Sequence record: PQ327946.1 | Length of the DNA stretch: 64,000 nucleotides | Source of the DNA: a phage | Reading direction: 5' to 3' (one strand) | Shown: in pieces, positions 2,999-38,803 of the stretch | Layout of the letters: every line of letters starts with the position of its first letter | Numbering within the stretch: position 1 is the stretch's first letter | Notes under the pieces: model-generated | Databases searched by the model: none | The model's input: the letters and a program-made list of their open reading frames with translations, nothing else | What the model was told of the DNA's origin: nothing | Translations under genes and position numbers: made by a program

Positions 2999-3459
2999 TA
3001 ATAAAGGTCCTCTGAATAAAGTTCTTTCTCACTTCCGCCACGTTCAATACGTACCTGTCCAGCATACGTTGCAATAATCATTGCTTCTTCACGAGTCCAG
3101 TAATTAGAGTATTGGTCGATAAAGCCTTGGTCGTCACCACAAACTTGTTGCGAGACTAATTGAGGGCCAACTATATCAAGTACTTCAGCCATATCTTTAG
3201 AGTAATGACGAACTCCAGGAATAACCAGAGTTCCACCACTCTTCAATTTAAACCTATTAGCTGCACATACTATAACACGTTGAACTTTTTGGTCATTATT
3301 CCAATAGCACGTTTGCCAACAGATTTCAGGAACTTCATTCATTATATCATCAGCAGAATAATTATAACCGTAGGACTGGAATTTTTCTGCTAGACTTTCA
3401 GGGGTCTCACGAGACAAGGCCAAATCTAATAGCTCTAAACGTTCTTTAAATGATTTCAT
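2998..3459 (-). CDS. Hypothetical protein (153 aa)
   Basis: ORF with stop/start overlap to neighbours; motA.1-like position. Confidence 0.5.
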
Positions 3460-3800
3460 TTAAACCATTCCTTAATACGTTGCCAAATAGATTTTTGTGC
3501 TTGTTTATTTACACCAATCGAACGAATAACCGGTTGTGACTGCTGATATTCTTTATAATCTTCTTTATAGATTTCGTAAGCTGCATCAACAAATGAACTG
3601 ATCGCTGCCATAAAGTTTTTACGTATACCGCCAGGAGCTACTCCATTAGGGAATTCAGAATTTTCGCGAATAATTAAATATAACCCAGCTTTAACTTTAA
3701 CTATAGTTCCAAGATAAGCCCCGTGGTACCAAATATCCCATCCTTCCTGAGTAGGTTCTGCACATTTACGAAGTTCGTTAATAATATTCAGCTTATTCAT
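3456..3800 (-). CDS. Hypothetical protein (114 aa)
   Basis: ORF immediately downstream of motA on the same strand. Confidence 0.5.
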
Positions 3801-3810
3801 TATGTATTCC

Positions 3811-4443
3811 TCACAGTACGTTAGTTACAAGGGTAATGATTTCTTTGGACACATTAGGGAAGTCAATGTAAGTATATTTACCACCGATCTTAATCTTAAC
3901 ATCATTTTCAAGAGAAGTAAACAGCTTTGATTCAGTTTCTGACATGTTGTATGCAAATATTCTAAGACAACCATCTCGACGAATTTCGATCTGACGAATA
4001 CCTAGAACTCGTTTTGCAAATCGAACTTCCAAGTTACTACGGTTTTCACCAATTTCTTTAACTTCAACTTTATCTTTAATATTTTCAAAAACAAAGTTTG
4101 CTAATTCATGCATTTCGGGAGTAACTCCACGTGCTTTTCTAGTGTTACGTTTCTGAAGAAGTTCTGGAGCATTTTCTTGGGCAAAGAGGTCTGCAGCTTT
4201 TTGGATAATATCCATTGCTTCGCCTGTTGCTATAAGTCCATCACCAGATTTTTCGACTAAACCTTTCTTAATCAATACACCAATGTTAGAGTTGACAACC
4301 GATGCATTGTATTCCGCTTCCAGAGCTTCACGGACATTGGCAGCAGTGGTGAAGTTGTTCTTAATGATATAAACCATTATTGCAGCAGTTTTTTCATTCA
4401 GAGCGTTTTCAGAAGCTTTGATGATGTAAGCAACTTTAGACAT
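3811..4443 (-). CDS. motA: Middle-transcription activator MotA
   Basis: 210 aa; MSKVAYIIKAS..NSNIGVLIKKGLVEKSGDGLI..QENAPELL matches T4 MotA. Confidence 0.85.
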   Translation of the reverse strand: MSKVAYIIKASENALNEKTAAIMVYIIKNNFTTAANVREALEAEYNASVVNSNIGVLIKKGLVEKSGDGLIATGEAMDIIQKAADLFAQENAPELLQKRNTRKARGVTPEMHELANFVFENIKDKVEVKEIGENRSNLEVRFAKRVLGIRQIEIRRDGCLRIFAYNMSETESKLFTSLENDVKIKIGGKYTYIDFPNVSKEIITLVTNVL

Positions 4444-4629: not shown

Positions 4630-5955
4630 TCAAAGTGCCTCCAAGTCTTTAGTGTACTCTGTCACAACATCAGTAGACTTCCAATACTCATTTTCTTCTT
4701 TCTTAGCTTTAGCTTCTTCTGCCAGTTTACGTGCTTCGTCGGAAGTGATATGGAAGATGTTAAGACCTACCAGTTTATCGACATACTCTTTATACATTTC
4801 GATTTGTGCTAGCTCTTCAGTCAAAGCTTTACGAGTCTTGCCCTGAATCACAATTTCGCCACTGATAACTTTTTTGATGAAGTGTGCCTTAGCAAAAGCA
4901 AGTTTAAATGCTTTTTCAGATTCAAGGATTTTGTTGTCAATACGTTTCTGAACGTAAGTCTTACGGACTTCAACAAAATCTTTGATTAAGTCCACTACAT
5001 TATCATAGACTGCTAATTTACCCTTTTCATTAATCACTGTGATGTTTTGTGAACGACGTTCGATGAGACTAAAATCTTTCATGATTTTTTCATGACGTAG
5101 CTCTTCATCATCAGGAAGCGAGTACTCTTTACGGAACTTCACCTTAAACCCAAAGCCGTGTTCACCGCAATCATCTTCCCATGAGATTAGACCTTTGTCT
5201 TCCAACGGGTCAAGAACCTTACTCACATACGTTTCGCGGTCGAATTTATATGGGATTTCAGTTATCTGCATTTGAGTGCGAGATGTGAACTTATATGTTC
5301 CGTGAATCTCATAACGCCCATCAACTTCATGTACTTCACCACGGAATTCCGGGAATTCAACTTTTGGCTTAGTGACATTTTTACCTTGAAGAGCTTGTAA
5401 TACAGCCTTTTTGACTGATTTAAAACTATGAGGCAGAATATTTGTTGCGTAACCGGTTGCAATACCAGAGACACCATTCAAAAGAACTGTCGGAATAATA
5501 GGAAGATAGAATTTTGGTGGAATGTGTTCTTTATCTTCATGAGCTGGAGCATATTCAGTATCTTTATATACGTTATAGAAATTTTTACTTACACGAGCAA
5601 AAATATAACGAGATGCTGCAGCTTTTTGGACTGTTCGAGAACCAAAGTTGCCTTGGCCATCTAACAGTGGATAGTTGTTGTTCCATGTGTTAGCCATCAA
5701 TGCACCTGCATCTTGTGCAGAAGATTCACCATGGTGATAACCTAAATCTGCAACACCACCTGCAATTGACGCAAGTTTATGAAATTTTTCTTTATTGCCA
5801 CGAGCCAAATCTAACGCACGATGAACCACAAAACGTTGAACCGGCTTAAATCCATCAATCATGTTTGGGATTGCACGGTTTTCAACGGTGTACATCGCGT
5901 ATGCTAAGGCTTCGTTATCAATAATACTTTTTAGATTACGAGAATTCAATTGCAT
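4630..5955 (-). CDS. 52: DNA topoisomerase II medium subunit gp52 (GyrA-like)
   Basis: 441 aa; gyrase A-type segments (KPVQRFVVHRALDL, active-site region ..SRYIFAR..); T4 gp52 is of similar length. Confidence 0.85.
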   Translation of the reverse strand: MQLNSRNLKSIIDNEALAYAMYTVENRAIPNMIDGFKPVQRFVVHRALDLARGNKEKFHKLASIAGGVADLGYHHGESSAQDAGALMANTWNNNYPLLDGQGNFGSRTVQKAAASRYIFARVSKNFYNVYKDTEYAPAHEDKEHIPPKFYLPIIPTVLLNGVSGIATGYATNILPHSFKSVKKAVLQALQGKNVTKPKVEFPEFRGEVHEVDGRYEIHGTYKFTSRTQMQITEIPYKFDRETYVSKVLDPLEDKGLISWEDDCGEHGFGFKVKFRKEYSLPDDEELRHEKIMKDFSLIERRSQNITVINEKGKLAVYDNVVDLIKDFVEVRKTYVQKRIDNKILESEKAFKLAFAKAHFIKKVISGEIVIQGKTRKALTEELAQIEMYKEYVDKLVGLNIFHITSDEARKLAEEAKAKKEENEYWKSTDVVTEYTKDLEAL

Positions 5956-9384: not shown

Positions 9385-11598
9385 TTATTTGGCCGCTTCC
9401 ACGGCCTTCATGAATTTAACGATTTGAGCGACCTGTTCTTTGGAAAGAGTACCACGTCGTCCCATGTATTCTGACACAATATGATAATTGGTTTCGAATT
9501 CAATAACCATTTTATCATCATTATCGTAAGCATTATCTTTAAGCTTATCGAAAATTTTAGCACACAATTCTAACTTCTTATTCAGTTCTCTGTTGGTAGC
9601 ACCTGAGAATCGATTCCATCCCCAACGATTATTTACTGTTGAAAGTTTTGCAAAATCTTTACTGATTTCTTTGTTCTTAGAGCTAAAATACTTACTAAGG
9701 AAGTTAAGCTCTTCATTACGAGTAATATGATTCAAATAAGGCTGGGCTCTACGACTTGGTGATACATACTCATCATAATCCACTTTATCAATTAGCATAA
9801 TATAGTCATTAATTGATTTTTCAAACAAACATTCTACTTCACCAAGTTTACGAACTTTCTTAGCAATCTGTGGACGGACTACAGTGAACTCTTTAATACC
9901 TGACAAATCAGCAATACGAGTCAAGAAACTAGAATCATAGTTCAACCAACCTTTATTTGCGTCAAGACATTCAGCGTTAAAACGATTACGAATTACAACA
10001 TAACCTTGGATTTCATCAGCTTTACCGGCCGGAATAAAGAGATCTTCTGATACCCAAACATCGTTTTCATTCTTAAAGAACCGATGAGCACTTGGGGATT
10101 TAGGACGAGGCCCATTAGAACGAGTCTTGACTTCAATCCATGGCTTAACGATTTGTAAAAGCTCTGAAGTCTTGTACATGTTAATGTTGTCGCCATCAAA
10201 GATAACTTTAAGACGTTCCAGAAGTTTCATTGCATCTTCGTCTGTAGGGTCAACGAATAGTACGCTTTTACCAAAACCGCGTGGAACTTTACCGTTTAAT
10301 TTAACCTCGTCTTTAGACATTTCAATTGAATTAAGAGCTCGCATTAATGGAACGCGTCCCTTAACGTCGTCAATAACAATTTCAACGTTTTTAATGTTAA
10401 TGCCAATCAGACTGTTAATTGAAATGGTTGATGATGAGCTACCACTTTCACGAATACGACGAAGACGAGGGTCTTCAATGATATCGTATACGACGCCAAG
10501 ATTACACCACTCAGGCCCCATTTTAAAACGTTTGTACAACTCGGAATAAGTTAGTTGTTCTTTAGAGTATTTCAGTGATTCAATATTAGACCCAGCCTTT
10601 TCCATGTATTTACGAGCGGTATAGCCAAGAGAATCAATTTCACGGAACACATGATGTGGGTATTTACAATCAATCCATTTCTTAGAATCTTCAGCGAACA
10701 ATTTAGCATCGATTTCTGCAACGCGTTTATGGATATTTGCTACTGTACGTTTATCAAATGACAATGCTTCACGAGACGGGGCTACATCTAGTTCACCCAT
10801 AGGGAATTTAATATAAGCTGTAGTGCATCGCGTCATCATCCATGTTTGTTCTTTAATAACACTTCCGATTGGATATACAATACCACCATAAACAGCCATG
10901 ATATTACCACGTTCACCCCATGGAGCTTCCTTGGCCAAATATACATCATCGAATTCCGGGAAGTATTTGATATCTTTAACACCACGAACTTCTGCAATAT
11001 CGCCGAGAGGACGCATAACATAAGCAATTTCGGATGCGAACTTTTCAAAATCTTCTGGGTTAACAGGCACAACTACTTCAACGCCGGTCCGGTCATCAGG
11101 ACCCATCTTATCTACGAAGGTTGGCTTAATTTGTGGGCCTGTGTCATCTTGGTAGATTACGTAACCACGAACTTCACCATTGTGATAAGACGTAAGGTTA
11201 AACGTATCAGTATATGCTAATGGAGCTTTAGAGCCGAGCCCGAATCCACCAATGAAATCGTTACTTGATGTTTTAGTTGAAGCAAAATATGAGTTATAGA
11301 TTCCTGGCTCTTCATCATTACCTCGAATGGTGAAATCACTCATACCAGGACCAAAGTCTCGAACTACAAAACGTGGGTCTAAACGACCTGGAGCCTGAAC
11401 AATAAACTTATCAGTGCAACCATTAAGAATTTGACCATCGATACAGTTTGTGATTAATTCGCGTACACAAGCCAATTCTTTGTTTGTATAAAGGTCATTA
11501 GACAAAATCTTATAAACTTTGCTATTGCCTTGAATAGTAAATGCTGTGCTCTTACCGCCTGAACCAATAATCGTTTCTTTAGCCGTTTCAATAATCAT
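9385..11598 (-). CDS. rIIA: rIIA protein (GHKL ATPase-like N-terminal domain)
   Basis: 737 aa; N-terminal ELITNCIDG and DFGPGMS motifs; size and synteny match T4 rIIA. Confidence 0.85.
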   Translation of the reverse strand: MIIETAKETIIGSGGKSTAFTIQGNSKVYKILSNDLYTNKELACVRELITNCIDGQILNGCTDKFIVQAPGRLDPRFVVRDFGPGMSDFTIRGNDEEPGIYNSYFASTKTSSNDFIGGFGLGSKAPLAYTDTFNLTSYHNGEVRGYVIYQDDTGPQIKPTFVDKMGPDDRTGVEVVVPVNPEDFEKFASEIAYVMRPLGDIAEVRGVKDIKYFPEFDDVYLAKEAPWGERGNIMAVYGGIVYPIGSVIKEQTWMMTRCTTAYIKFPMGELDVAPSREALSFDKRTVANIHKRVAEIDAKLFAEDSKKWIDCKYPHHVFREIDSLGYTARKYMEKAGSNIESLKYSKEQLTYSELYKRFKMGPEWCNLGVVYDIIEDPRLRRIRESGSSSSTISINSLIGINIKNVEIVIDDVKGRVPLMRALNSIEMSKDEVKLNGKVPRGFGKSVLFVDPTDEDAMKLLERLKVIFDGDNINMYKTSELLQIVKPWIEVKTRSNGPRPKSPSAHRFFKNENDVWVSEDLFIPAGKADEIQGYVVIRNRFNAECLDANKGWLNYDSSFLTRIADLSGIKEFTVVRPQIAKKVRKLGEVECLFEKSINDYIMLIDKVDYDEYVSPSRRAQPYLNHITRNEELNFLSKYFSSKNKEISKDFAKLSTVNNRWGWNRFSGATNRELNKKLELCAKIFDKLKDNAYDNDDKMVIEFETNYHIVSEYMGRRGTLSKEQVAQIVKFMKAVEAAK

Positions 11599-11610
11599 AT
11601 TTTTCTCTCA

Positions 11611-11811
11611 TCACAAGTTACGTTTAAAAATTTCTGCTACTTCAAGAAGTTCTTCTTTAGTAGCTGTATCGGTTTGTATTTTATATCGAATTTCCTTAAA
11701 GCGTTCTTTAAAGGCTTCAGCTGATTCGATATCAAAAAATCTTTGGATAAGCCGGAATTCCCGGAGCACAGCTTTATCAAAAAGTTCCAAGTCCACGTTA
11801 TATGTTCTCAT
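11611..11811 (-). CDS. Hypothetical protein rIIA.1-like (66 aa)
   Basis: Small ORF directly upstream of rIIA as in T4. Confidence 0.5.
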   Translation of the reverse strand: MRTYNVDLELFDKAVLREFRLIQRFFDIESAEAFKERFKEIRYKIQTDTATKEELLEVAEIFKRNL

Positions 11812-11903
11812 AATATTCTCTTCAGTAGATTCCTAGGGCACTATTACTAAAGACCATATAATCTATCATCTTATGTGTAATAGTGCCTCAGGCTATTCAG
11901 GAT

Positions 11904-13004
11904 TTATGCTGTGAAGATTTTATCCCACATCGCAACAACTGCATCTCGGTTATACTTCTTCCATACTGCTTCAGCACGTTTAACTCGAGCTTCGTATGTA
12001 TCAGTGAATTCTAATACAGCTTTTGTGTAAAGCGCAACTACTTCTTTCTTAGGAGTAGAGGAATCAATTTCTACACGCACAGTATCTGGGTCGTATTCAA
12101 ATGTCGCATGAGGATAATCCTTAAAAACTAACTGGATTACAGGGACACCTTTAGAGATGGCTTCAATAGAACTATTCTCTACTGTACCTGTGTCAGGACA
12201 AGTATTAATAAGTGCTTTAGCTGTTTTAAGACGTTCCATGATTTCACTGTGTGGAGCATCAATAATAACAGGATATTTAGCTGGTGGTGCCCATTTGCTT
12301 GGACAGTATCCTACACCATTTTCGCCTAGTGCTTTAATTGCTTCAAGAGCAACATCAGTGCGACGCATTTTAGTGTCATAACGTTGTGCACTAATAATCA
12401 GATCAGTCGCCGGAAGAACTTCAGGTTTCTCATTCAAACAAATAACCGGATAATCTTCGGCTTCAAACAACGGATTTGCTCGCCAATAATCATAATCAAT
12501 TTTGTCAGTCAGACCTGAAGTCATATAACAATATTTGCGTTCAAATTCACGGAAGGCTTTAGTAGGAGCATAACTCTTACCACCATTCTTATGAATTTGA
12601 ATAGTCTGGTCCCAAATTTGAACAATGCCACGAGATACTGGTTCAAATGGTGTTGCCATAAAATTCTTATGAACTTTAGAGAGACCTGCGTCTTTAATTG
12701 CCTGAACGGTTAGTTTAGTCGGTTCCATAGTAACAACAAAATCGTATTCATGGATGCCGGCTAGTTCAACAATCTTACGAGCCATAGTATAACTCATACC
12801 TAGACTGAATTTAGTCAGATGACCAACAGGATGGTGTGTAACTTTCCAGTCACCAAACGTGTCATTATCAAAGCCGATATAATCAATATCAGCACCGATG
12901 GACACAAGATATTTCAACACATTTAAATGTACTGCTTCAAGGCCACCTTGTACACGGTCAGGATTAAATGGGACTGCGCGAGATGGGATAAACATAACTT
13001 TCAT
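11904..13004 (-). CDS. GT-B fold glycosyltransferase, candidate DNA (5-hmC) glycosyl/arabinosyl transferase
   Basis: 366 aa; C-terminal motif VENSSIEAISKGVPVIQ resembles the GT4/GT-B donor-binding signature; sits between rIIA.1 and 39 where T4 has gene 60. Confidence 0.55.
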   Translation of the reverse strand: MKVMFIPSRAVPFNPDRVQGGLEAVHLNVLKYLVSIGADIDYIGFDNDTFGDWKVTHHPVGHLTKFSLGMSYTMARKIVELAGIHEYDFVVTMEPTKLTVQAIKDAGLSKVHKNFMATPFEPVSRGIVQIWDQTIQIHKNGGKSYAPTKAFREFERKYCYMTSGLTDKIDYDYWRANPLFEAEDYPVICLNEKPEVLPATDLIISAQRYDTKMRRTDVALEAIKALGENGVGYCPSKWAPPAKYPVIIDAPHSEIMERLKTAKALINTCPDTGTVENSSIEAISKGVPVIQLVFKDYPHATFEYDPDTVRVEIDSSTPKKEVVALYTKAVLEFTDTYEARVKRAEAVWKKYNRDAVVAMWDKIFTA

Positions 13005-13020
13005 AATTAAGCCTTATTAA

Positions 13021-13048
13021 AATTAAAATGAAGCTCCCGAAGGAGCTT
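13021..13048 (-). terminator. Terminator hairpin (AAGCUCC-UUCG-GGAGCUU) overlapping the gene 39 stop
   Basis: + strand aagctcccgaaggagctt, then a U-rich run on the minus strand. Confidence 0.5.
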
Positions 13049-14864
13049 AGGACATCCATTCTTTACGAAGTTCAGAATCATCACCCAACAACATTTCAAA
13101 GAGTTCTTTCCAATTTTCAGGAAGTTTAACTACGTCGTACACAGGGTTCTGAATCATTTCACGATATTCTGACTTTTCAAGGGAGCCCAATCCCTTGATG
13201 TATCGAATACTATGCTTAGGAAGTGTATCTTTAGCTTCTTCATACTCAGCTACAGTATAAAACCATTTTTGAGTTTTGCCAATTTGTGCAATAATTACAG
13301 GCGTTTTAACAAAGCGAATACGTCCTTGTTCAAACAATTCAGGCCAATTACTAAAGAAAGCAAGCAAAGCCGGATAAATACTTCCAAGACCGTCATGATC
13401 GGCATCGGTCATAATTGCAATATTACGATAGTTCGTATTCTCTGCCTTTTCACCAAGAATAAGACCTGTGATAGCACAGATATCGAAGAGCTCTTTGTTC
13501 TTCATCATATCAGCATATGACATACCCCAGCTATTCATCACCTTACCACGTAATGGGAATCCGCCGTGTAGTTCACGGTCACGAACATCAATGAGATAAC
13601 CAATTGCCGAATCACCTTCTGTTAAAAACAATGTCGTATCTGCATCTTTACCACATTGGTTAGCTTTAATATGCTTATGAACCTTAGCTTTAGTTGCCTT
13701 TTTAGCTGCTTTAGTTTCTGCGGCCTTTTCTGCTGCCAATTTACGAGCTAATGCTGCTTCAACAATAGGCATAATCAAGGCTTCATTTTTAAGAAGTGCC
13801 TGAGCAATTTTCTTAGCATCTAATTGGATATGATTACGAATATCACCATACGTTGACGTTAAACGTTCTTTAGTCTGAGAATCAAAACGCATGTTGCTCA
13901 TGTCTCTAATAAACATCAACAATGTGAGACATTCTTTAACACGAGCTTTAGTGACTTCAATACCCTTATATTTCTTTTTAATGCCGGGCAAAAGATGTTC
14001 GCAGATATCATCCATTACACATTCAACATGATGACCACCATTTTTAGTATGGATGTTATTCACATAAGTTAAATGACGGAAGCCGTCTGGTGATGTTGTG
14101 AATGCTATAGAGACTTTATCATTTTCTTGAATGATGTTATCTTCACCAAATTGTTTAGCAAATCGTTTAAAATTACCATCAACCTTTTTACCATTAAATG
14201 TGAACTTGATATCAGGATAAACGACTGCCAATGTTTGAAGTCGGTCTAAAGTAATATCTAAATAAATTTGAGATAAATTATGCTCTTCAAATGAAGAGAA
14301 ATCAGGAGTGAAGATTACTTTGGTGCCTTTACCTTTAGATTTCTTAGAAGACCATGATTTGTTTTCCATTCCGTTTGAACAGTTAACAGTGATTTCATTT
14401 TCGCCATCTGACGTGATGCCTGTAAACAACGTAGAGAAGATATTAGTTAAACTACTCCCGACGCCGTTCATACCACCAGTCTTGCGTTCAGAGTCATCAC
14501 CAAAGTTACCACCAGCCTTTGGAATAGTCCAGGCTGCTACAGGCCCAGGAATTTGTTCACCTGTTTGGTCGGTAACTAAACCTTGAGGAATACCACGTCC
14601 GTTATCTTCCACTGAGACTTGATTATTTTTAATTTGCACATCAATTTTATTTGCAAACTTAAATGATGTACGAATAGCTTCATCAACCGAGTTGTCAATA
14701 ATCTCATCGATTAATTTAACCAGACCAGGAACATATTCAACTTGTTGATATTTACCAAACAAAAAACGCTCGTGGGCTTCTTTGGCCGAAGAACCAATAT
14801 ACATGCCACTTCGTTTCTTAATATGTTCTACATCTGACAATACCTTAATTTCATTTTTAATCAT
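13047..14864 (-). CDS. 39: DNA topoisomerase II large subunit gp39 (GyrB-like), uninterrupted form
   Basis: 605 aa; GyrB ATPase and Toprim segments; matches the unsplit 39 of T2/T6-type phages, not the T4 39+60 split. Confidence 0.85.
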   Translation of the reverse strand: MIKNEIKVLSDVEHIKKRSGMYIGSSAKEAHERFLFGKYQQVEYVPGLVKLIDEIIDNSVDEAIRTSFKFANKIDVQIKNNQVSVEDNGRGIPQGLVTDQTGEQIPGPVAAWTIPKAGGNFGDDSERKTGGMNGVGSSLTNIFSTLFTGITSDGENEITVNCSNGMENKSWSSKKSKGKGTKVIFTPDFSSFEEHNLSQIYLDITLDRLQTLAVVYPDIKFTFNGKKVDGNFKRFAKQFGEDNIIQENDKVSIAFTTSPDGFRHLTYVNNIHTKNGGHHVECVMDDICEHLLPGIKKKYKGIEVTKARVKECLTLLMFIRDMSNMRFDSQTKERLTSTYGDIRNHIQLDAKKIAQALLKNEALIMPIVEAALARKLAAEKAAETKAAKKATKAKVHKHIKANQCGKDADTTLFLTEGDSAIGYLIDVRDRELHGGFPLRGKVMNSWGMSYADMMKNKELFDICAITGLILGEKAENTNYRNIAIMTDADHDGLGSIYPALLAFFSNWPELFEQGRIRFVKTPVIIAQIGKTQKWFYTVAEYEEAKDTLPKHSIRYIKGLGSLEKSEYREMIQNPVYDVVKLPENWKELFEMLLGDDSELRKEWMS

Positions 14865-14869
14865 GTTGT

Positions 14870-14910
14870 CTCCTCGTTATGAAGGTATTCTATCATCCGA
14901 AATCTAAAGC
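14870..14910 (-). promoter_or_regulatory. Candidate MotA-dependent middle promoter (TGCTTTA - N12 - TAGAAT) for gene 39
   Basis: Minus strand TGCTTTAgatttcggatgaTAGAATaccttcataacGAGGAGacaacATG. Confidence 0.45.
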
Positions 14911-14929
14911 AAAAAGGGCCGAAGCCCTT
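14908..14929 (-). terminator. Terminator hairpin (AGGGC-UUCG-GCCCU + U tract)
   Basis: + strand aaaaagggccgaagccctt at the 3' end of the goF-like gene. Confidence 0.5.
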
Positions 14930-15353
14930 ATTTAAATTTAATTTTCTGAAGTGCATCAATTGCAGCCAAACGCCCTTGTTCACTTTTAACTGTAATGACC
15001 ACATCACCTGATACGATCACCGAACCATCAACAAATTCTACAGAGCCTTTTTTGAAATCGACAGCTGTATCCGGTTCCGGAACTTCTTCAAAGAATTTAA
15101 ATTCTGCACCATAAAGCAGAATATCACCTTGCATACTATGAATAGTTCGACCATAATCGCCTACGGCTTCTACAGCAATCACCGAAACACCGTAACCAAT
15201 CATCTCTTCCACAATAAAATCTTTGGACAATAAAGTAGTATGCAGATTAGTATTAAGACGTTTACCAGTCGTATTAAGAAGTCTCAAGAAATTATCTTCC
15301 TGTCCTTTGATAATACGATATTTCTTACCAACTTCAAAACCTTTAAAAGCCAT
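14928..15353 (-). CDS. Hypothetical protein, goF-like position (141 aa)
   Basis: 141 aa ORF immediately upstream of gene 39, where T4 carries goF (also 141 aa); no motif support. Confidence 0.4.
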   Translation of the reverse strand: MAFKGFEVGKKYRIIKGQEDNFLRLLNTTGKRLNTNLHTTLLSKDFIVEEMIGYGVSVIAVEAVGDYGRTIHSMQGDILLYGAEFKFFEEVPEPDTAVDFKKGSVEFVDGSVIVSGDVVITVKSEQGRLAAIDALQKIKFK

Positions 15354-15355
15354 AA

Positions 15356-15535
15356 TTAACCCTTCTTAAGTAAGTCGTAAAAACCACCGTTCACATGTTT
15401 AGGAGCAGAAACCCGACGAGTAGACAGACGATGACATTCAGGGCAAACATCGTTTTCTCGTTCAGAAATTCTTTTAATTTTTTCATATTCATGACCACAA
15501 TCTTCAGATTGACATTTATAGTCGTATAATGGCAT
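15356..15535 (-). CDS. Small zinc-ribbon protein (about 59 aa)
   Basis: Hand-translated MPLYDYKCQSEDCGHEYEKIKRISERENDVCPECHRL..; CxxxxC..CxxC; below the track cut-off; coordinates approximate. Confidence 0.4.
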   Translation of the reverse strand: MPLYDYKCQSEDCGHEYEKIKRISERENDVCPECHRLSTRRVSAPKHVNGGFYDLLKKG

Positions 15536-15537
15536 TA

Positions 15538-15966
15538 TTATTCCTTAAAATGTGCTTTCAACATTTGATACAAAGACCATGCCTGGTCATTATTTTCGAT
15601 AGTAATCGTCATCACAGGAAATTCAGACAATTCACCAAGTTCACCAGAATCTTGCTCTTCAGACGCTTGATACGGATTTTCAACTTCGTCAAAGAACTCT
15701 GCTTCATTCGTGGAGAGCCAGATAAAGTTTTCATCAAGGATATCACCGCCTGTTGCGTATCCAACCGTGCCAGTAGATGTTAAAATTTTAGTAGGACGTC
15801 CGAGATGGTCAACATCTAAAATTTTAAAAGGTTCCATGCCAAGACGTCGTGCATAAATCCCATTATCAGTGTGGTCTTTAATAAACTCTTCTTGGGCACG
15901 TTTATCTATAAATTGGTACCATGAGTTAACGCGGAATTTATTAGCCATTAGTAAGTTTCCTTCCAA
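15538..15966 (-). CDS. Hypothetical protein (142 aa)
   Basis: ORF in the tight same-strand array. Confidence 0.5.
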
Positions 15967-32252: not shown

Positions 32253-32801
32253 TTAACGAGCCCATTTGATAATTTCTGTAATCAAATTATTACGTTCGCT
32301 TGCATTAAATCCTATAACTTTGTTAGCACCATCATGATTAAGTAATTGATACGTTTGGATTTCGTTATGAATTGCAAACTCTTCAAAATATGAAATGACT
32401 GTATTAAAACCGAATGAAGACAAAGTAATAAGGTCGTCTTCAAAACTTTCAGTCATTTCGTTACGTGTTAAAATAATTGTGAACACATCATGGTTTTGGC
32501 AAAGACGAACATAATCCTGTTCATAAACGTCAAGAACCGAGTCCGCATCTTGTCGAATACGTCCATAAACCCAGTTACTAATATATCCACGGTCTAACAG
32601 ATAAATCTTAGTAGGGTCTAAATAATTCAACATCGTTTCGAAACAGCCAACTTCATTTCGAGACTTAACATCGAAACGTCCATCAACTGTTCGTTTAAGG
32701 AAATCAATCTTTACATATCTTTCACTAATTTCCATTATGTCATTAATGAAAGTTGTTTTACCAGCATTATCCGGGCCATCTACTAAAATAATTTTAGCCA
32801 T
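32253..32801 (-). CDS. P-loop nucleoside/nucleotide kinase-like protein
   Basis: 182 aa; Walker A GPDNAGKTT and LLDRGYISNWVYG (dNK/thymidylate-kinase-like DR motif); occupies the locus where T4 has beta-gt. Confidence 0.45.
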   Translation of the reverse strand: MAKIILVDGPDNAGKTTFINDIMEISERYVKIDFLKRTVDGRFDVKSRNEVGCFETMLNYLDPTKIYLLDRGYISNWVYGRIRQDADSVLDVYEQDYVRLCQNHDVFTIILTRNEMTESFEDDLITLSSFGFNTVISYFEEFAIHNEIQTYQLLNHDGANKVIGFNASERNNLITEIIKWAR

Positions 32802-32802
32802 T

Positions 32803-33702
32803 TTATTCCTCGATTACGACATCTTCATATTTAGGTATATTATACGGTGAAGAAATTAAAGCGTTAAAGTAGATGAACTCACCAAGACCTGGATGGAATA
32901 CTTCTTCAGGATTTTCGAAATATTGAATCTTCGGACGTCCTTTAAGAATTTGATAGTACTCAGTTTTAGTTGGATTAAAAATTCGAATCAGCGCTTCTTC
33001 AGGATACTTATTTCTGTCGAAACTATTATTTGGATCAGTTATATAAAGCGGTTGACCTAATTGAATTGCGCATTCAACCACTTGTTCAAAACGATAGCAC
33101 GGGTCACTAATTCGAAATGGATGAAAAATACCATCTAGATGAATAGGAGCCAAATCACCTACAAGACGCTGCATGATGGAAGGACGTATAACTTTCTGCG
33201 TTACGATAATCTTATTACCATCCGCACCAGCGTTAACCAGCACTTCCTTTTGACGTTCATTCAACACAGTAGTTTGAAGTGAACGATTAACCGACAACAT
33301 GTCGGTTTTTAAGAATTCGTCAATATAAAAACGCGGTTTATTAGGGTCTGCGGTGATATTGAAATTGAATTCTACATCAAAAGCACCATCATATCCAGTG
33401 ATATCTGTTATTAGAAAATCACAATCATAATAAGCAATTAATGAATCAACCACAAATTCATTTTCAGACCAGAAATATTTACGAGTGTTATACGCGTTAT
33501 CTTTATACCATAATGGAACAAACTTAAATTCTGGGAAAAGACGTTCACATTCTTTAATATCAGATGCATTACGTGGATATGTAATCACATCACCTGGATT
33601 AGCACGGTGCAAATGAAGTTGGAAGTTGCCATCCTTAAGGATAGCATACTGTCCAGTTTCATAAGACCGCATACTCAAGATAGGTACGCGGAAAATAGCC
33701 AT
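32803..33702 (-). CDS. Hypothetical protein (299 aa), candidate DNA-modification enzyme
   Basis: No recognisable motif; directly coupled (ATGA overlap) to gene 42 where T4 has beta-glucosyltransferase. Confidence 0.45.
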   Translation of the reverse strand: MAIFRVPILSMRSYETGQYAILKDGNFQLHLHRANPGDVITYPRNASDIKECERLFPEFKFVPLWYKDNAYNTRKYFWSENEFVVDSLIAYYDCDFLITDITGYDGAFDVEFNFNITADPNKPRFYIDEFLKTDMLSVNRSLQTTVLNERQKEVLVNAGADGNKIIVTQKVIRPSIMQRLVGDLAPIHLDGIFHPFRISDPCYRFEQVVECAIQLGQPLYITDPNNSFDRNKYPEEALIRIFNPTKTEYYQILKGRPKIQYFENPEEVFHPGLGEFIYFNALISSPYNIPKYEDVVIEE

Positions 33703-34418
33703 TAGTCAAGGAATCCTTTAACATAATCAAAATCACGTTCAAACACATGGGCACTTACCATGGTATGAGTATAATCACCAACTTCTACACCACATTCGTT
33801 AGCGATATAATGAAGTAATTTTCCTTGGAGATAAAAATCCAACTGCATAACAACAGCACAGTTCTGAGAACGCATATGGCAGTGGGTATAAAGCTTACCA
33901 TCACGAATATAATAAGTCACCGAGTCAGTACATGGATATTCAAGCGTTTCGTCCGAATCAAGCAAAGCCTGATCAGAACTTTCTAGAATTTGGAACACAA
34001 CTCTTCGGGAGTTAGGCTTCTCTTTAAGTTCTTTTAGAAGAGCTGGTAATTGGGCCGCAATGCGAGGACCATAGAAAGTGTTGAAGTTCGCCGGCAAAAC
34101 ATCTGATTTTGGTTTAGAAATAAATTTAGCGACATTAGGATATGCCTTAAACGCTTCTTCTGCGTCAGTACCACCAGAAATCATAAACTTCCAGAAGTCT
34201 TCGGCATATTCATAAGAGATGCGGTTAATACGTGGGTCGGTCATTTTGAATGATGATGGAGTGTCAACAACTACTGTCATAGACCCAATTTCATTACAAC
34301 GTCCAATACGAGAATCAGTTACGAATTCCGGGTTTTCTAAAATTTCACGATTGACTGCTTTAAATGCGGTTTGAAAATCTGCGGCTTTGATATATTTCAT
34401 TGTGTTATGTTTTCCCAT
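33702..34418 (-). CDS. 42: dCMP hydroxymethylase gp42 / thymidylate-synthase-family enzyme
   Basis: 238 aa; TS-family catalytic EYPCTD and SAHVFERDF motifs; position between uvsX and 43 as T4 gene 42. Confidence 0.6.
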   Translation of the reverse strand: MGKHNTMKYIKAADFQTAFKAVNREILENPEFVTDSRIGRCNEIGSMTVVVDTPSSFKMTDPRINRISYEYAEDFWKFMISGGTDAEEAFKAYPNVAKFISKPKSDVLPANFNTFYGPRIAAQLPALLKELKEKPNSRRVVFQILESSDQALLDSDETLEYPCTDSVTYYIRDGKLYTHCHMRSQNCAVVMQLDFYLQGKLLHYIANECGVEVGDYTHTMVSAHVFERDFDYVKGFLD

Positions 34419-34696
34419 GTTTACCTCAATACAATTTATTATATACTCAATTCGTAAAGCTTATTTGAATTTCTTGACAATGTTGATATAACGTAAAGCT
34501 TCAGCATCGATACTTCCAAGAACACTATGAAGAAATGCATCAGCGTAGTATTCCAATTAAACAGGTTCTTTAATCACTTTAGCCGCTTTAGTTTCAAACA
34601 GGCCCATCAGGGCCTTTTTAAGAATTTGTTCGATGCTGTTAATTTTCATAGTCAAAATCTCTTCGTTAAGTTGGTGGTTAAAAGTTTTTCTAGAAA

Positions 34697-35857
34697 TCAT
34701 TCTGGGTACCTCAAAGCGTCGTCAGAGTTAGTTATATCAATAATAGATATAGAATTTTCTGATAACCCATTTTTAGATAACTGACGTTTATAATATCTTT
34801 CACAATATGTACACGTCGTCCCGCAGATTTCATTAGCACAATCGAAATCTGGATGTTTGAACCACCTTTTTTCTAAAAAGCCATCTAACAAAGAGGTTTC
34901 AATATTTACCGTATGTGAAAACTCGGTCTCATTTTCAAGAGTGAAAATGGTCTCTAAAGGCTTCCACAATTCCAACAAATTACCTTCAAATTTTTCGGAA
35001 GCATAAGCTTCAAGAACTTTCAAAATGTAGTCTGTGCTACCTGTACGTCCTGAAACTTTGAATTGAGTGATACCAATATCATTATAAAGTTTCAAATCTT
35101 GAGGACGAACAAAACGAGTTCTCAACCAGTTAAATGGGTCTGTATCACGAGCTTTAATACAGTGCTGCATTGGATACCCATTTAAGGATTTGGCATCATC
35201 TACTGTAACATCGGTGCTATGGAAAATATAGCAAGAGTCACGATAACTACAATGTGTTGTATACCCTTTACCAGCATTAGAACAGAACTCATTTACAAGA
35301 ACTTCAAATATTATATTGTTCTTATTACAAAACTCTGCTGCACGCTTCAGGAAAGAAACTGAACGGTTCTTATGAATTCCGCAGCAGACCTTTTTGATAT
35401 TATATTGGTCATGCAAGTATTTGATTTGAGTTACAGCATCGACATGTAGAATTGTTGAAACTTCAATCTCAATGTCTTTATTGACTTCACGAACAATTTC
35501 CATAACAACAGGGTTAGCGATAGTAATACGCCATACGCCTATTGACCAAAGATACTGAACATAATCCTGAATAGCTTTCTTCTTCCACTCAACTAGTTCT
35601 CTTTTTGAACCAGGATTTATCGTGTTGAGTGTATAGTTAAAGCAAATACCTAATTCGTTACAACGTTTAACGTAGTCTTCTAACATCTTTTTGTCAACGT
35701 CAGGAAGCCTAAAATCAGGTCTGGCTGCTACAAAAGCCATTTCTCTTGTAGAGCCATATACTTCGTTTATCAAGCTATTAGGATAGGTTTTATTGAGCTC
35801 TACGATTTTATCAAGAAGAGCTAAATCAAAATTCGTTCCGATTTTAAAAGTATTCAT
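34697..35857 (-). CDS. U32-peptidase-like Cys-rich protein
   Basis: 386 aa; FNYTLNT and EVLVNEFCSNAGKGYTTHCSY resemble the U32 signature; C-terminal cluster CANEICGTTCTYC; family assignment tentative. Confidence 0.35.
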   Translation of the reverse strand: MNTFKIGTNFDLALLDKIVELNKTYPNSLINEVYGSTREMAFVAARPDFRLPDVDKKMLEDYVKRCNELGICFNYTLNTINPGSKRELVEWKKKAIQDYVQYLWSIGVWRITIANPVVMEIVREVNKDIEIEVSTILHVDAVTQIKYLHDQYNIKKVCCGIHKNRSVSFLKRAAEFCNKNNIIFEVLVNEFCSNAGKGYTTHCSYRDSCYIFHSTDVTVDDAKSLNGYPMQHCIKARDTDPFNWLRTRFVRPQDLKLYNDIGITQFKVSGRTGSTDYILKVLEAYASEKFEGNLLELWKPLETIFTLENETEFSHTVNIETSLLDGFLEKRWFKHPDFDCANEICGTTCTYCERYYKRQLSKNGLSENSISIIDITNSDDALRYPE

Positions 35858-35914
35858 TTTTTTTGCATCCCACGTTAATTGATGCGATGGTTTTTGCAGG
35901 TCTTACTTAAATTA

Positions 35915-36301
35915 TTATAGATTCGGTTTATATGATTTAAATGTTTCGAATTCGCCTTTATTCATAAGAGCTTTGAATTCGTCAGGACGCATAGCTTTGT
36001 CGTCGATAATCCAATCATATACTGGTTTATGTGTTAGCAAATTATGGTACTTCAATCCAATGTTTGCCAAGTTCTGAATCAGACTTGGGAGAATGTCAAT
36101 TGCTATACGACCAGGACCGACTGACTTCATACCGCGAGCAGTGTAAAGCGTTATGGTATGCCCTGCATCATACAGGGCATTAATGGCAGATACCATTTCG
36201 ACGTCTGGTTTGAAGTTCACGTAATCACGATTGTTATTCCACTCTGTTATACAATCATCGACATCAAAACAAAGATTAAGCATGTTTTCTACACGGTGCA
36301 T
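35915..36301 (-). CDS. HAD-superfamily phosphatase (KdsC-like)
   Basis: Motif I LCFDVDDCIT near the N-terminus; start set at the ATG overlapping the upstream stop (TAATG). Confidence 0.5.
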   Translation of the reverse strand: MHRVENMLNLCFDVDDCITEWNNNRDYVNFKPDVEMVSAINALYDAGHTITLYTARGMKSVGPGRIAIDILPSLIQNLANIGLKYHNLLTHKPVYDWIIDDKAMRPDEFKALMNKGEFETFKSYKPNL

Positions 36302-37986
36302 TAGATTCGTTCCCATTGATGAGTGATATCGCCACCGATTGGACGATAAGAAACACCAGTTTCTTTATCAGTTAGTACCCATTTACCAGGATTTTTTGTA
36401 ATCAGAGTAGCCGTTACAGGTTCTGCTACATCATAACTAATAGTGCCGTCCTGAAGTACACGGCCCATGTTACGTAATTGCTTAGTCAGAAGTTCCATAC
36501 CTTTATAATATGCGGCTACCGCTTTAAGTGGATTATTCTTGAAATAACCACCTAATGCAATCCAGATAATTGCTACAGCCAAATGATGATACTCATTAAA
36601 CGAACTCATCTTTCCATATTTGTAAACTAATGGATTGATGTTAATAGTCACATTACAAGTTGTTTCATCAATAGTAAACTGACCCCAGGTCGGATTAGCG
36701 TTGAATTCATCATAACCTGAAACAGCATAAAGCACTTTAGCTTCATCATACAATTTTGGCCCATAAATCTTGGTTTCACCAAAATATCCACGAGGGTCGA
36801 TAAACTTGACTTCACCATTATCAGTAATCATAGTATTACTGAAGTTCGGGTCACCATGAATAACAGAGTACTGTCCCTGAGAACGGTTATGATAACGAAT
36901 AAGGTGTTCTAAAGCTTGTTTCAGCATTGGCTTCAGACGCCCAATCTTAGTGTAGTTCACATGTGTGATTTTACCAAATGAATCAATCAATGGTTGAATA
37001 CTTTCACAACGATCAATAACTTTCGTATAGAATTCTTTAGTGAAATCACGACGAACAGTTTCAGGACTTACAAAATAAGTGTCTGTGCTGAATTTCAGTG
37101 CGTCTAAAATTGCATCAACAATTTGTGGACGAGCAAGACTCGATTTGGATTTAATATATTCAAATGCTGGCTTACCTTTAATGCGTTCCATTTCAAAGTT
37201 ATTTTCATTAACAGAAACTAACTGAGGAACTGAATCTGATTTCACTTTAAGATACCATGAAATCTCATCTTTCTGAAGAGCTCGTCCCTGTTCGGTTAAT
37301 GCGAATTTAGTTACAGTTTCTTCACCAATTTCAACTGCATTAAAACTACGATTAAGTTCACGAACTTCATGAGCTTTTTCAAGTTTAGGCATATCACCTA
37401 AATCAATTAGATTCATAAGCTCTGATTTATTGAATGCGCTGCCGTAAAGGAATTCTACGAAATCACGTCCTTTGCAGTATTCATGAATTTCCTCATCAGT
37501 AGAACCCATATAGAATTCCCAGTCTTTGAACTGATAAATTCCTACAACATTACCACCTGTTGAACCTACGTTAGTGATATTTTCGCCGTCGAAATTATAT
37601 CGACATTCGTCACCCTTAACATAGATTGCGTTAACATTCCAAGACCATGAACCAAAATCAGGAATAATATCACACCAGTTAACAATTACATTATGACCGT
37701 CTAAATCTTTGTGTAATTTAGCAAGAGCATAAGCAGAACCGTACGCTTCATCAACTGTACGAATAGTCACATTGAACCCTTCTTGCTCACAATAAACTCG
37801 AACAGTTTCAGCAAATTTTGAATGAACTACTACAATAATTTCATCTGCGCCAAGGTCAGAATAAATTGTATACAAATTGCTCAGAATAGTGTCTTGTTTA
37901 TAGTTAACAAGCACCTTAGGAATATGATGCGTTATTGGATACAAACGAGTTGCCAGTCCAGCACCAAGAATAACAGCTTTTTTCAT
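36301..37986 (-). CDS. Bifunctional sugar-1-phosphate nucleotidyltransferase / sugar kinase
   Basis: 561 aa; N-terminal AVILGAGLATRL nucleotidyltransferase glycine loop; C-terminal VIHGDPNFSNTMI..FIDPRG of APH/choline-kinase-type kinases. Confidence 0.6.
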   Translation of the reverse strand: MKKAVILGAGLATRLYPITHHIPKVLVNYKQDTILSNLYTIYSDLGADEIIVVVHSKFAETVRVYCEQEGFNVTIRTVDEAYGSAYALAKLHKDLDGHNVIVNWCDIIPDFGSWSWNVNAIYVKGDECRYNFDGENITNVGSTGGNVVGIYQFKDWEFYMGSTDEEIHEYCKGRDFVEFLYGSAFNKSELMNLIDLGDMPKLEKAHEVRELNRSFNAVEIGEETVTKFALTEQGRALQKDEISWYLKVKSDSVPQLVSVNENNFEMERIKGKPAFEYIKSKSSLARPQIVDAILDALKFSTDTYFVSPETVRRDFTKEFYTKVIDRCESIQPLIDSFGKITHVNYTKIGRLKPMLKQALEHLIRYHNRSQGQYSVIHGDPNFSNTMITDNGEVKFIDPRGYFGETKIYGPKLYDEAKVLYAVSGYDEFNANPTWGQFTIDETTCNVTININPLVYKYGKMSSFNEYHHLAVAIIWIALGGYFKNNPLKAVAAYYKGMELLTKQLRNMGRVLQDGTISYDVAEPVTATLITKNPGKWVLTDKETGVSYRPIGGDITHQWERI

Positions 37987-38027
37987 GTTGTGGTCCTCAT
38001 TGGTAAGTAGGAGTATTGTACACTATT

Positions 38028-38171
38028 CTAGTTAAAGCATTCATACTTTGCTTGTAGTCCAATCATAATCCATCCGATTATAAGAGTCGGAATCATTACT
38101 GGAGCCGTTAAGCTCCAGTAGATAGTCATGACAAGCATCAATAGTAAAAGTCCTATTGTTATTGCTTTCAT
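38028..38171 (-). CDS. Small membrane protein (about 47 aa)
   Basis: Hand-translated MKAITIGLLLLMLVMTIYWSL..; ATGA overlap with the SIS gene stop; coordinates approximate. Confidence 0.3.
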   Translation of the reverse strand: MKAITIGLLLLMLVMTIYWSLTAPVMIPTLIIGWIMIGLQAKYECFN

Positions 38172-38803
38172 TGTTCGCCTCGTAACATGGCACCTAGTGC
38201 ACCGCCAGGGTGGAACTTAAGGAAGTCATTAGAGGTAAATCCACGTTCAGACGAAAGGTTGATAGCAAACGTATCGATAAGCGCTAACAACAATGTAGTG
38301 GACATAGTCGGAGCCAGAGAATTCTCATCAACCTCTACTGCGATGCCTGTACAGAACGTATAATCAAAAAGAGCTTCGTATTCTTGTGGAATGTCTGGGT
38401 TACAATGCAACAGAATCTGTTTGACGTTCGGACGAATCATTTTAAGATGCTTAGCCACGCCTATCATTTCTTCAGTTTTACCAGAACGACTAATATGAAT
38501 CAACACATCATTAGGCGCAATGAATCCTGCATCACCGTGAGAATAATGCCCGGTGTTCAAGTACATACTCGGGATACCGAGTGAAGCAAATGTCTCAGAA
38601 GCTTTAGTTGCGATATTAGCGTTCTTACCAACACCTGTAATAATTACACGACTTTCATAATTACTAAGTCCTGGGCGTCGAAGAGTTTCTAGAATAGCAT
38701 TATAACGAGCAGGGTTTTGACTAATTACTTTGGCCATAGCGGCCAAAGAAGAAGCTTGTTTTATGATTGCGTCAATAGCGATAGTAATAGGAGTAGTTTT
38801 CAT
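38168..38803 (-). CDS. SIS-domain sugar-phosphate isomerase (arabinose-5-phosphate isomerase KdsD/KpsF-like, no CBS domains)
   Basis: 211 aa; ITGVGKNANIATKASETFASLGIPSMYLNTGHYSHGDAG matches the KdsD/GmhA SIS core pattern. Confidence 0.6.
   Translation of the reverse strand: MKTTPITIAIDAIIKQASSLAAMAKVISQNPARYNAILETLRRPGLSNYESRVIITGVGKNANIATKASETFASLGIPSMYLNTGHYSHGDAGFIAPNDVLIHISRSGKTEEMIGVAKHLKMIRPNVKQILLHCNPDIPQEYEALFDYTFCTGIAVEVDENSLAPTMSTTLLLALIDTFAINLSSERGFTSNDFLKFHPGGALGAMLRGEQ

Follow-up and report, generated by a model that had tools for sequence, protein, structure and literature searches.

An unsplit gene 39 for the DNA topoisomerase II large subunit in an RB69-like coliphage

In phage T4, the large subunit of DNA topoisomerase II is divided between genes 39 and 60, with a ribosomal hop over 50 nt in gene 60 and an associated mobile insertion. 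Published work describes MobA and the bypass as one mobile cassette, ~1.1 kb in length, that was inserted independently in six clades, each of which has cassette-free relatives at 96-99% identity, and views this cassette as a recent mobile insertion (bioRxiv 10.1101/2022.08.31.505936). The topoisomerases II of phages T2 and T6 are two-subunit enzymes (PMC11461880). A gene 39 that looks continuous raises the question of whether anything of the T4 arrangement is left in it, and of what occupies the place next to it. We asked this of a phage DNA of 64,000 nucleotides (sequence record PQ327946.1), referred to here as the window. The original prediction had proposed that its gene 39 is a continuous GyrB-like ORF of 605 aa in the ancestral, uninterrupted arrangement, that gene 60 and the translational bypass element are absent, and that the neighbouring slot holds a glycosyltransferase instead.

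The phage has many close relatives. The 4 kb around gene 39 were 98-99.3% identical to numerous coliphages, including S143_2, F2, PNJ-9, HY126, ST0 and APCEc01, and the first 25 kb of the window were 97.9% identical to phage ST0. Most of the close relatives are placed with RB69 in Mosigvirus. The genes, all on the minus strand, follow the order rIIB, rIIA, rIIA.1, a 366-aa ORF, 39, a 141-aa ORF and 39.2, with dexA and dda further on; through 39.2, this order is the same as in RB69 (rIIA, rIIA.1, ORF003c, 39, ORF005c, 39.2). The gene rIIA.1 (11611..11811, minus strand; Pfam T4_RIIA1, E 3.7e-30) forms the downstream flank, and reference annotations place it beside gene 39 in T2/T6 and beside gene 60 in T4. 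RB69 gene 39 (RB69p004, NP_861694) is the same gene with the same length and neighbours and 96% protein identity, and the Mosigvirus-type orthologues, found in about 150 phages (ST0, F2, APCEc01, HY126 and ATK48 among them), show only point differences, with identity of up to 99.8% in ATK48. The RB69 reference gp39 departs from the protein of the window at aa 14-46. Small indels in codons 14-46 of that reference gene are absent in the window, F2 and T2, and are probably sequencing errors in an old record.

Gene 39 was found as one ORF at 13047..14864 on the minus strand, starting with ATG, encoding 605 aa and having its sole stop codon at the end. The coordinates, the length and the GyrB-like description given beforehand were all correct, as judged from the ORF, Pfam and PHROG. 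PHROG 543 ("DNA topoisomerase II large subunit") spans the protein from end to end (E 6e-287), and the topoisomerase II chain of T6 (PDB 8ylu_C) is matched by residues 1-605 over its residues 1-604 with 1162 bits. The gene is thus a complete, unsplit gene for the large (ATPase/TOPRIM) subunit. Pfam HATPase_c (aa 47-189, E 3.5e-11) marks a GHKL ATPase domain at 14298..14726 (minus strand) with the ATP-binding motifs N-box EIIDNSVDE (54-62), G1 DNGRGIP (87-93) and G2 GGMNGVG (130-136), and DNA_gyraseB (aa 249-385, E 3e-14) marks a transducer domain at 13710..14120 (minus strand) with its QTK loop at 330-332. Motif search and alignment placed the TOPRIM core at 13389..13619 (minus strand), from EGDSA (aa 416-420) to DADHDG (aa 487-492), so that the complete set of TOPRIM acidic motifs (EGDSA and DxDxD type) stands on a single polypeptide. 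TOPRIM_C matched aa 520-604 with 27.2 bits, slightly below the Pfam curated cut-off of 29. The N-box, G1, G2, QTK loop, PLRGK, EGDSA and DADHDG were invariant in the five phages compared (window, RB69, T2, T6 and T4), and the dN/dS of gene 39 against T6 was 0.06, with synonymous sites saturated. The window also encodes the DNA-cleavage (GyrA-like) subunit gp52, of 441 aa, at 4630..5955 on the minus strand (PHROG 551, E 2e-217).

The alignments locate precisely where T4 differs. In a global alignment with T4 gp39+gp60, from which the 50-nt gap had been removed, 490 of the 605 residues were identical (81% over the shared residues of this homologous enzyme), and the sole gap corresponded to ~71 T4-specific residues at the split, namely the C-terminal extension of gp39 and the N-terminal extension of gp60. 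The protein of the window is collinear with T4 gp39(1-473) followed by gp60(~32-160), and the artificially fused T4 gp39-gp60 chain 8yo3 was matched in two stretches. In the five-way alignment, identity to the window was 96% for RB69 gp39, 82% for T2/T6 gp39 and 81% for T4. The window, RB69, T2 and T6 were mutually gapless over the entire TOPRIM region; only T4 was interrupted, the ~71 additional residues being unique to it. T2 and T6 gp39 resemble the window in being unsplit at 605 aa and in sharing the same catalytic motifs, and T6 gp39 is represented by the cryo-EM structures 8ylu and related entries (PMC11461880).

Both T4 sites have their equivalents inside the TOPRIM core. The position of the 39/60 split lies between Ala474 and Glu475 (13440..13445, minus strand), where the window is continuous without extension residues. 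A T4-type split at aa ~466-473 with extension peptides is absent, as the single ORF has no residues added relative to T2/T6. The part equivalent to gene 60 is the 3' part of gene 39 (aa 475-605 and the stop codon, including the TOPRIM_C region; 13047..13442, minus strand), as indicated by the alignment with T4 gp60 ~32-160 and by a match of the gp60-type family PHROG 7229 at aa 452-605. At the hop site, aa 485-496 are encoded by ATG ACC GAT GCC GAT CAT GAC GGT CTT GGA AGT ATT (M-T-D-A-D-H-D-G-L-G-S-I), compared with ...GAT CAC GAT GGA [TAG CCTTCGGGCTA...50 nt...GGA] TTA GGT TCT in T4. The equivalent of the T4 take-off GGA is the Gly492 codon GGT (13389..13391, minus strand), which is followed directly in frame by CTT GGA AGT (Leu-Gly-Ser), with neither a stop codon nor a 50-nt gap. 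The same glycine codon is GGT in T2 and T6 and GGC in RB69. Two positive controls for the bypass, T4 (GGA-TAG...GGA) and Thanatos-1 (GGT-TAG...GGT), have the stop codon and the landing codon. The T4 nascent-peptide signal KKYKLQNNVRRSIKSSS is absent from the window, as it falls wholly within the T4-only insertion in the five-way alignment.

The T4 insert of 1.1 kb comprises a C-terminal extension of gp39 of ~43 aa, mobA (a pseudogene in the laboratory strain), 60.1 and an N-terminal extension of gp60 of ~30 aa, in addition to the GGA-UAG take-off, the 50-nt gap and the GGA landing site. None of these features occurs in the window. When the full 64 kb were searched by blastn-short with the 1,108-nt T4 split insert and with the 50-nt gap, all matches were 9-20 nt long and at chance level. 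No HNH (Mob-family) ORF was found between the two halves, as no ORF interrupts 13047-14864 and the T4 insert has no match in the window. An Rfam scan of 11500-15600 (E<=1) gave nothing in the locus, with a single chance-level snoRNA match (E 0.9). With a single ORF, a GGT codon without a stop and no cassette sequence in 64 kb, the proposed absence of gene 60 and of a bypass element holds.

How common is this state? By tblastn, the subunit was found in 2,205 phage records and stood in one piece, defined as one contiguous place covering at least 80% of the subunit, in 2,007 of them, including distant phages of Aeromonas, Vibrio and Campylobacter. Among 60 records sampled evenly down the ranking, only T4 (three pieces) and Shewanella phage Thanatos-1 (two pieces) were interrupted. 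A T4-type cassette, recognized by the T4 insert at ≥95% identity, was present in ~43 records; a small number of phages of Salmonella, Proteus and Acinetobacter, and also Thanatos-1, have divergent ones. Hence, the unsplit gene 39 is the majority state among sequenced phages and the usual one in almost all T4-like phages, and the split-and-hop of T4 is the rare exception. Within the clade of the window, the 5' two-thirds of gene 39 were found at ≥95% identity in 147 records, and a 161-nt segment across the split and hop sites was uninterrupted at ≥95% in 155; judged by these matching counts (147 and 155) rather than by record-by-record inspection, no sequenced member of the clade (~147 Mosigvirus, 97-99% identical) appears to be split. 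An unsplit gene 39 is already known from the literature (bioRxiv 10.1101/2022.08.31.505936; PMC11461880) and from the RB69 reference annotation, which states that the large Topo II subunit is split by an insertion in T4.

The neighbouring gene, at 11904..13004 on the minus strand, encodes a 366-aa glycosyltransferase of the GT-B/GT4-like type and is the orthologue of RB69 ORF003c (gp3), with 363 of 366 residues identical and the same position between rIIA.1 and 39. Pfam gave no match to this ORF even at E 10, and its PHROG carries the label "unknown function". It was named solely through a PDB sequence search (363/366 to 9iqz/9ir0, GT4-like) and the literature, and by this match it has the GT-B (GT4-like) fold. 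The original call of a glycosyltransferase was right although Pfam is blind to the ORF. Nothing material differs between this protein and RB69 ORF003c/gp3 (PDB 9iqz, 9ir0). The GT-B functional residues G20 and E281 are present, and positions 207 and 208 are Gln and Arg, as in RB69. ORF003c had been proposed as the RB69 arabinosyltransferase, with Gly20, Arg207 and Glu281 as flagged residues (Thomas et al., 2018; PMC6024577); the arginine at 208 probably corresponds to their Arg207 through a numbering offset in that paper. A 2026 paper in NAR revised the modified base of RB69 to di-arabinosylated 5-hydroxycytosine, and gp3 was proposed to be the second, beta-arabinosyltransferase (PMC13326640). 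By its sequence, the 366-aa ORF is likewise a putative second DNA arabinosyltransferase. The window holds pathway genes for 5-hydroxy-dCMP and for the NDP-arabinose donor. These genes of cytosine arabinosylation, at 32-39 kb next to the gene 43 polymerase, include a thymidylate-synthase-like gene (33702-34418), a U32-like gene (34697-35857), an NTP-transferase gene of the RB69 gp52:53 type (36301-37986) and a SIS-domain isomerase gene (38168-38803).

Is this glycosyltransferase where gene 60 or mobA would be, as a functional or positional replacement? On the map, T4 mobA-60.1-60 and the glycosyltransferase gene do share a position, with the first (5') 1.4 kb of gene 39 on one side and rIIA.1 on the other. 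However, the homologue of gene 60 is present in the window as aa 475-605 of gene 39, and in T2/T6 nothing but an empty spacer of 54 nt separates the unsplit gene 39 from rIIA.1, gene 60 and a glycosyltransferase both being absent; in T4, this slot has no such gene either. Clade-mates have other insertions at these borders (phi25-307 a homing endonuclease, JK45 a 136-aa ORF), no homology of the glycosyltransferase to gp60, gp60.1 or MobA was found, and the gene belongs to the cytosine-arabinosylation pathway whose other members stand at 32-39 kb (PMC13326640). A replacement is extremely unlikely on this evidence, and the alignments already refute it. What stands between 39 and rIIA.1 is an additional, clade-specific gene for a glycosyltransferase, which has no relation to the splitting of the topoisomerase. 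The predicted neighbour is real, but the word "instead" misleads, as codons ~475-605 of gene 39 are the gene 60 homologue and T2/T6 have neither.

Between the two genes, a hairpin scan detected a UUCG-tetraloop hairpin (AAGCTCC-TTCG-GGAGCTT; 13031..13048, minus strand) that overlaps the gene 39 stop codon; the ribosome-binding site and start codon (ATG) of the glycosyltransferase gene come next. The hairpin may serve in mRNA stability or termination. Terminator-like hairpins were enriched (8 observed, 2.3 expected), and two UUCG hairpins flank gene 39. A scan for sigma-70 promoters was uninformative because it found 14 sites where 14.2 were expected. Homing endonucleases occur around this gene in related phages. 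The final two codons of gene 39 are the insertion point of a Mob-family HNH/NUMOD3 endonuclease in the clade-mate phi25-307 and in 27 further records, where gene 39 is left whole. This endonuclease belongs to PHROG 655, the family of MobA, and has an N-terminus with 61% identity to the intact MobA of phage G50. The window is without a 3'-terminal HNH/NUMOD3 endonuclease of this type. In Thanatos-1, gene 39 contains both a MobA-family gene and a bypass of the form GGT-TAG...GGT; the cytosines of this phage bear a pentose, arabinose (PMC13326640).

From the continuity of the ORF, its collinearity with T2/T6, the conserved motifs, the absence of the cassette and the distribution in databases, 13047..14864 is almost certainly an intact T-even-type topoisomerase II large-subunit gene of an RB69-like coliphage, which the cassette never invaded or in which it left no scar. 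Nothing contradicts the reading of gene 39 as intact and unsplit. A single gp39 polypeptide carries the ATPase domain of the GHKL type, the transducer and all of TOPRIM, and gp39 with gp52 (4630..5955) would form a two-subunit type IIA enzyme as in T2/T6, as opposed to the three subunits of T4. In T4 and a few other lineages, the MobA cassette divides the TOPRIM-coding region, adds extension peptides and brings the 50-nt bypass along. Because gene 39 is free of this cassette, it would need no recoding and would be translated conventionally. Relaxation and decatenation activity of gp39+gp52 may be expected from the 82% identity to the active T6 gp39 (PMC11461880). The glycosyltransferase downstream (the RB69 ORF003c orthologue) is specific to this arabinosyl-5-hydroxycytosine clade.

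Whether the unsplit state is original or regained bears on the claim that it is ancestral. One could suppose that the MobA/bypass cassette was once present in an ancestor of the clade and was precisely removed when the gene recombined with an uninvaded allele, which would make the present gene derived. Decay and loss of the cassette are known, as clades without the endonuclease and the bypass keep extension peptides, including in fused ORFs (bioRxiv 10.1101/2022.08.31.505936), and this clade has active Mob-type endonucleases near gene 39, as the 3' end in phi25-307 and the 27 other records illustrates. However, no scar is visible in the window: aa 466-492 agree with T2/T6 in length and in type of sequence, and neither extension residues nor a shortened stretch of the HomR type occur. 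No cassette-bearing member occurs among the ~147 genomes of the clade, nor does any Mosigvirus clade figure among the carriers in the preprint (bioRxiv 10.1101/2022.08.31.505936). We consider such a restoration very unlikely. The wide distribution of the unsplit gene and the missing extension-peptide scar suggest by parsimony that the arrangement is ancestral, in line with the accepted view and with the original prediction, and that gene 39 was never invaded rather than precisely restored. An artefact of assembly or sequencing, by which a real interruption or frameshift was collapsed into a falsely continuous gene 39, would not be without precedent: old T4-like references have errors, such as the indels of the RB69 gene 39, and other RB69 ORFs have been reported split through sequencing errors (PMC13326640). 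Yet the same uninterrupted ORF recurs at 97-99.8% identity in more than 140 independently sequenced genomes and is collinear with the biochemically and structurally characterised T6 gp39, which reduces the chance of an artefact to practically nothing.

A last proposal concerns the clade as a whole, which might be refractory to the MobA/bypass cassette, through divergence of the target or through isolation linked to its di-arabinosyl-5-hydroxycytosine DNA. This would account for the finding of 0 carriers in ~150 members despite E. coli hosts being common to them and the T4-type carriers. Across the deleted/HomR region, about one position in five differs between the window and T2 in the alignment. 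The modification as a block is weakened by Thanatos-1, which is arabinosyl-modified and cassette-bearing (PMC13326640). Since that phage is arabinosylated and nevertheless has a MobA-family gene and a bypass, arabinosylation as such does not exclude the cassette. Overall, we regard a refractory clade as unlikely.

With gene 39 read as intact and free of the cassette, the phage would have the standard two-subunit T-even topoisomerase II, made without translational recoding, a result that matters little by itself. In annotations, the gene should go by 39 or "60plus39", and no gene 60 should be listed. Current interest lies more with the adjacent glycosyltransferase, given cytosine arabinosylation and the evasion of host defences, but that protein has already been described and crystallised. 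For the biology of homing, the window represents the uninvaded allele at two Mob-type sites, the intragenic site of MobA and the 3'-terminal site of the phi25-307-like endonuclease, and therefore its gene 39 could be a recipient in homing experiments. If the clade is refractory, this gene 39 would be a natural "resistant allele" for studies of target recognition by MobA.

In the Shigella phage phi25-307, a clade-mate of the window phage, a 265-aa Mob-family HNH/NUMOD3 homing endonuclease (positions 3048-3845 of locus L003, minus strand) has inserted at the very end of gene 39, within its final two codons. Gene 39 of this phage ends in ...TGG ATG CTA GGA TAA, and the original gene 39 end, TGGATGTCCTAA, is found again beyond the element. 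The equivalent position in the window is approximately 13047-13053, where, in contrast to phi25-307, gene 39 carries no 3'-terminal endonuclease. Both the phi25-307 endonuclease and MobA, the homing endonuclease of the T4-type cassette, belong to PHROG 655, and the N-terminal 71 aa of the former share 61% identity with intact MobA. In 28 phage records a near-identical copy adjoins the gene for the large topoisomerase II subunit; one of these, CJY920, has a T4-type MobA cassette as well.

A MobA-family ORF of PHROG 655 splits gene 39 of the Shewanella phage Thanatos-1 (split region at positions 1833-2910 of locus L009). It is followed by a GGT take-off codon, a TAG stop, a GCCTTAGGGC stem-loop and a GGT landing codon, a bypass-like element in which the hop codons are in a GGU version instead of GGA. 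The cytosine of this GGU hop carrier is pentose-modified. The window itself holds an RB69-type cytosine hypermodification cluster (32253-38803) adjoining the DNA polymerase gene 43 (38844-41555). In coordinate order it opens with two ORFs that have no Pfam match (32253-32801 and 32803-33702), the second of which may encode the first arabinosyltransferase. Next come genes resembling those of thymidylate synthase (33702-34418) and a U32 peptidase (34697-35857), then a gene for an NTP-transferase of the RB69 gp52:53 type (36301-37986) and one for a SIS-domain sugar isomerase (38168-38803).

The window gene 39 is flanked by two GC-rich UUCG-tetraloop hairpins, one overlapping its stop codon (13031-13048) and the other in the upstream spacer (14914-14929). 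Terminator-like hairpins are enriched in the 4-kb gene 39 region (eight observed against 2.3 expected), and the flanking pair probably serves in mRNA stabilisation or punctuation. Upstream of the gene, the position of T4 39.1 is filled by a 141-aa homologue of RB69 ORF005c (14928-15353; PHROG 622, "unknown function"), the C-terminal 40 residues of which weakly match the goF-type family PHROG 13003 (E 2e-6).

Compared with the window, F2 and T2, gene 39 of the RB69 reference (NC_004928, positions 5340-5445 of locus L006, corresponding to window gene 39 codons 14-46) differs by short insertions or deletions, +2 nt and +1 nt among them, that scramble the local protein segment and give a product of 606 aa instead of 605. 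These are most likely sequencing errors of an old record, comparable in all likelihood to its ORFs 46/47 and 52/53, which were reported as split (PMC13326640). Finally, in another clade-mate, the Shigella phage JK45, rIIA.1 is separated from the glycosyltransferase gene by an additional ORF of 136 aa (positions 905-1315 of locus L007), for which a Pfam search returned zero matches. Because this ORF sits there, the borders of the glycosyltransferase gene represent a variable insertion spot in the clade.
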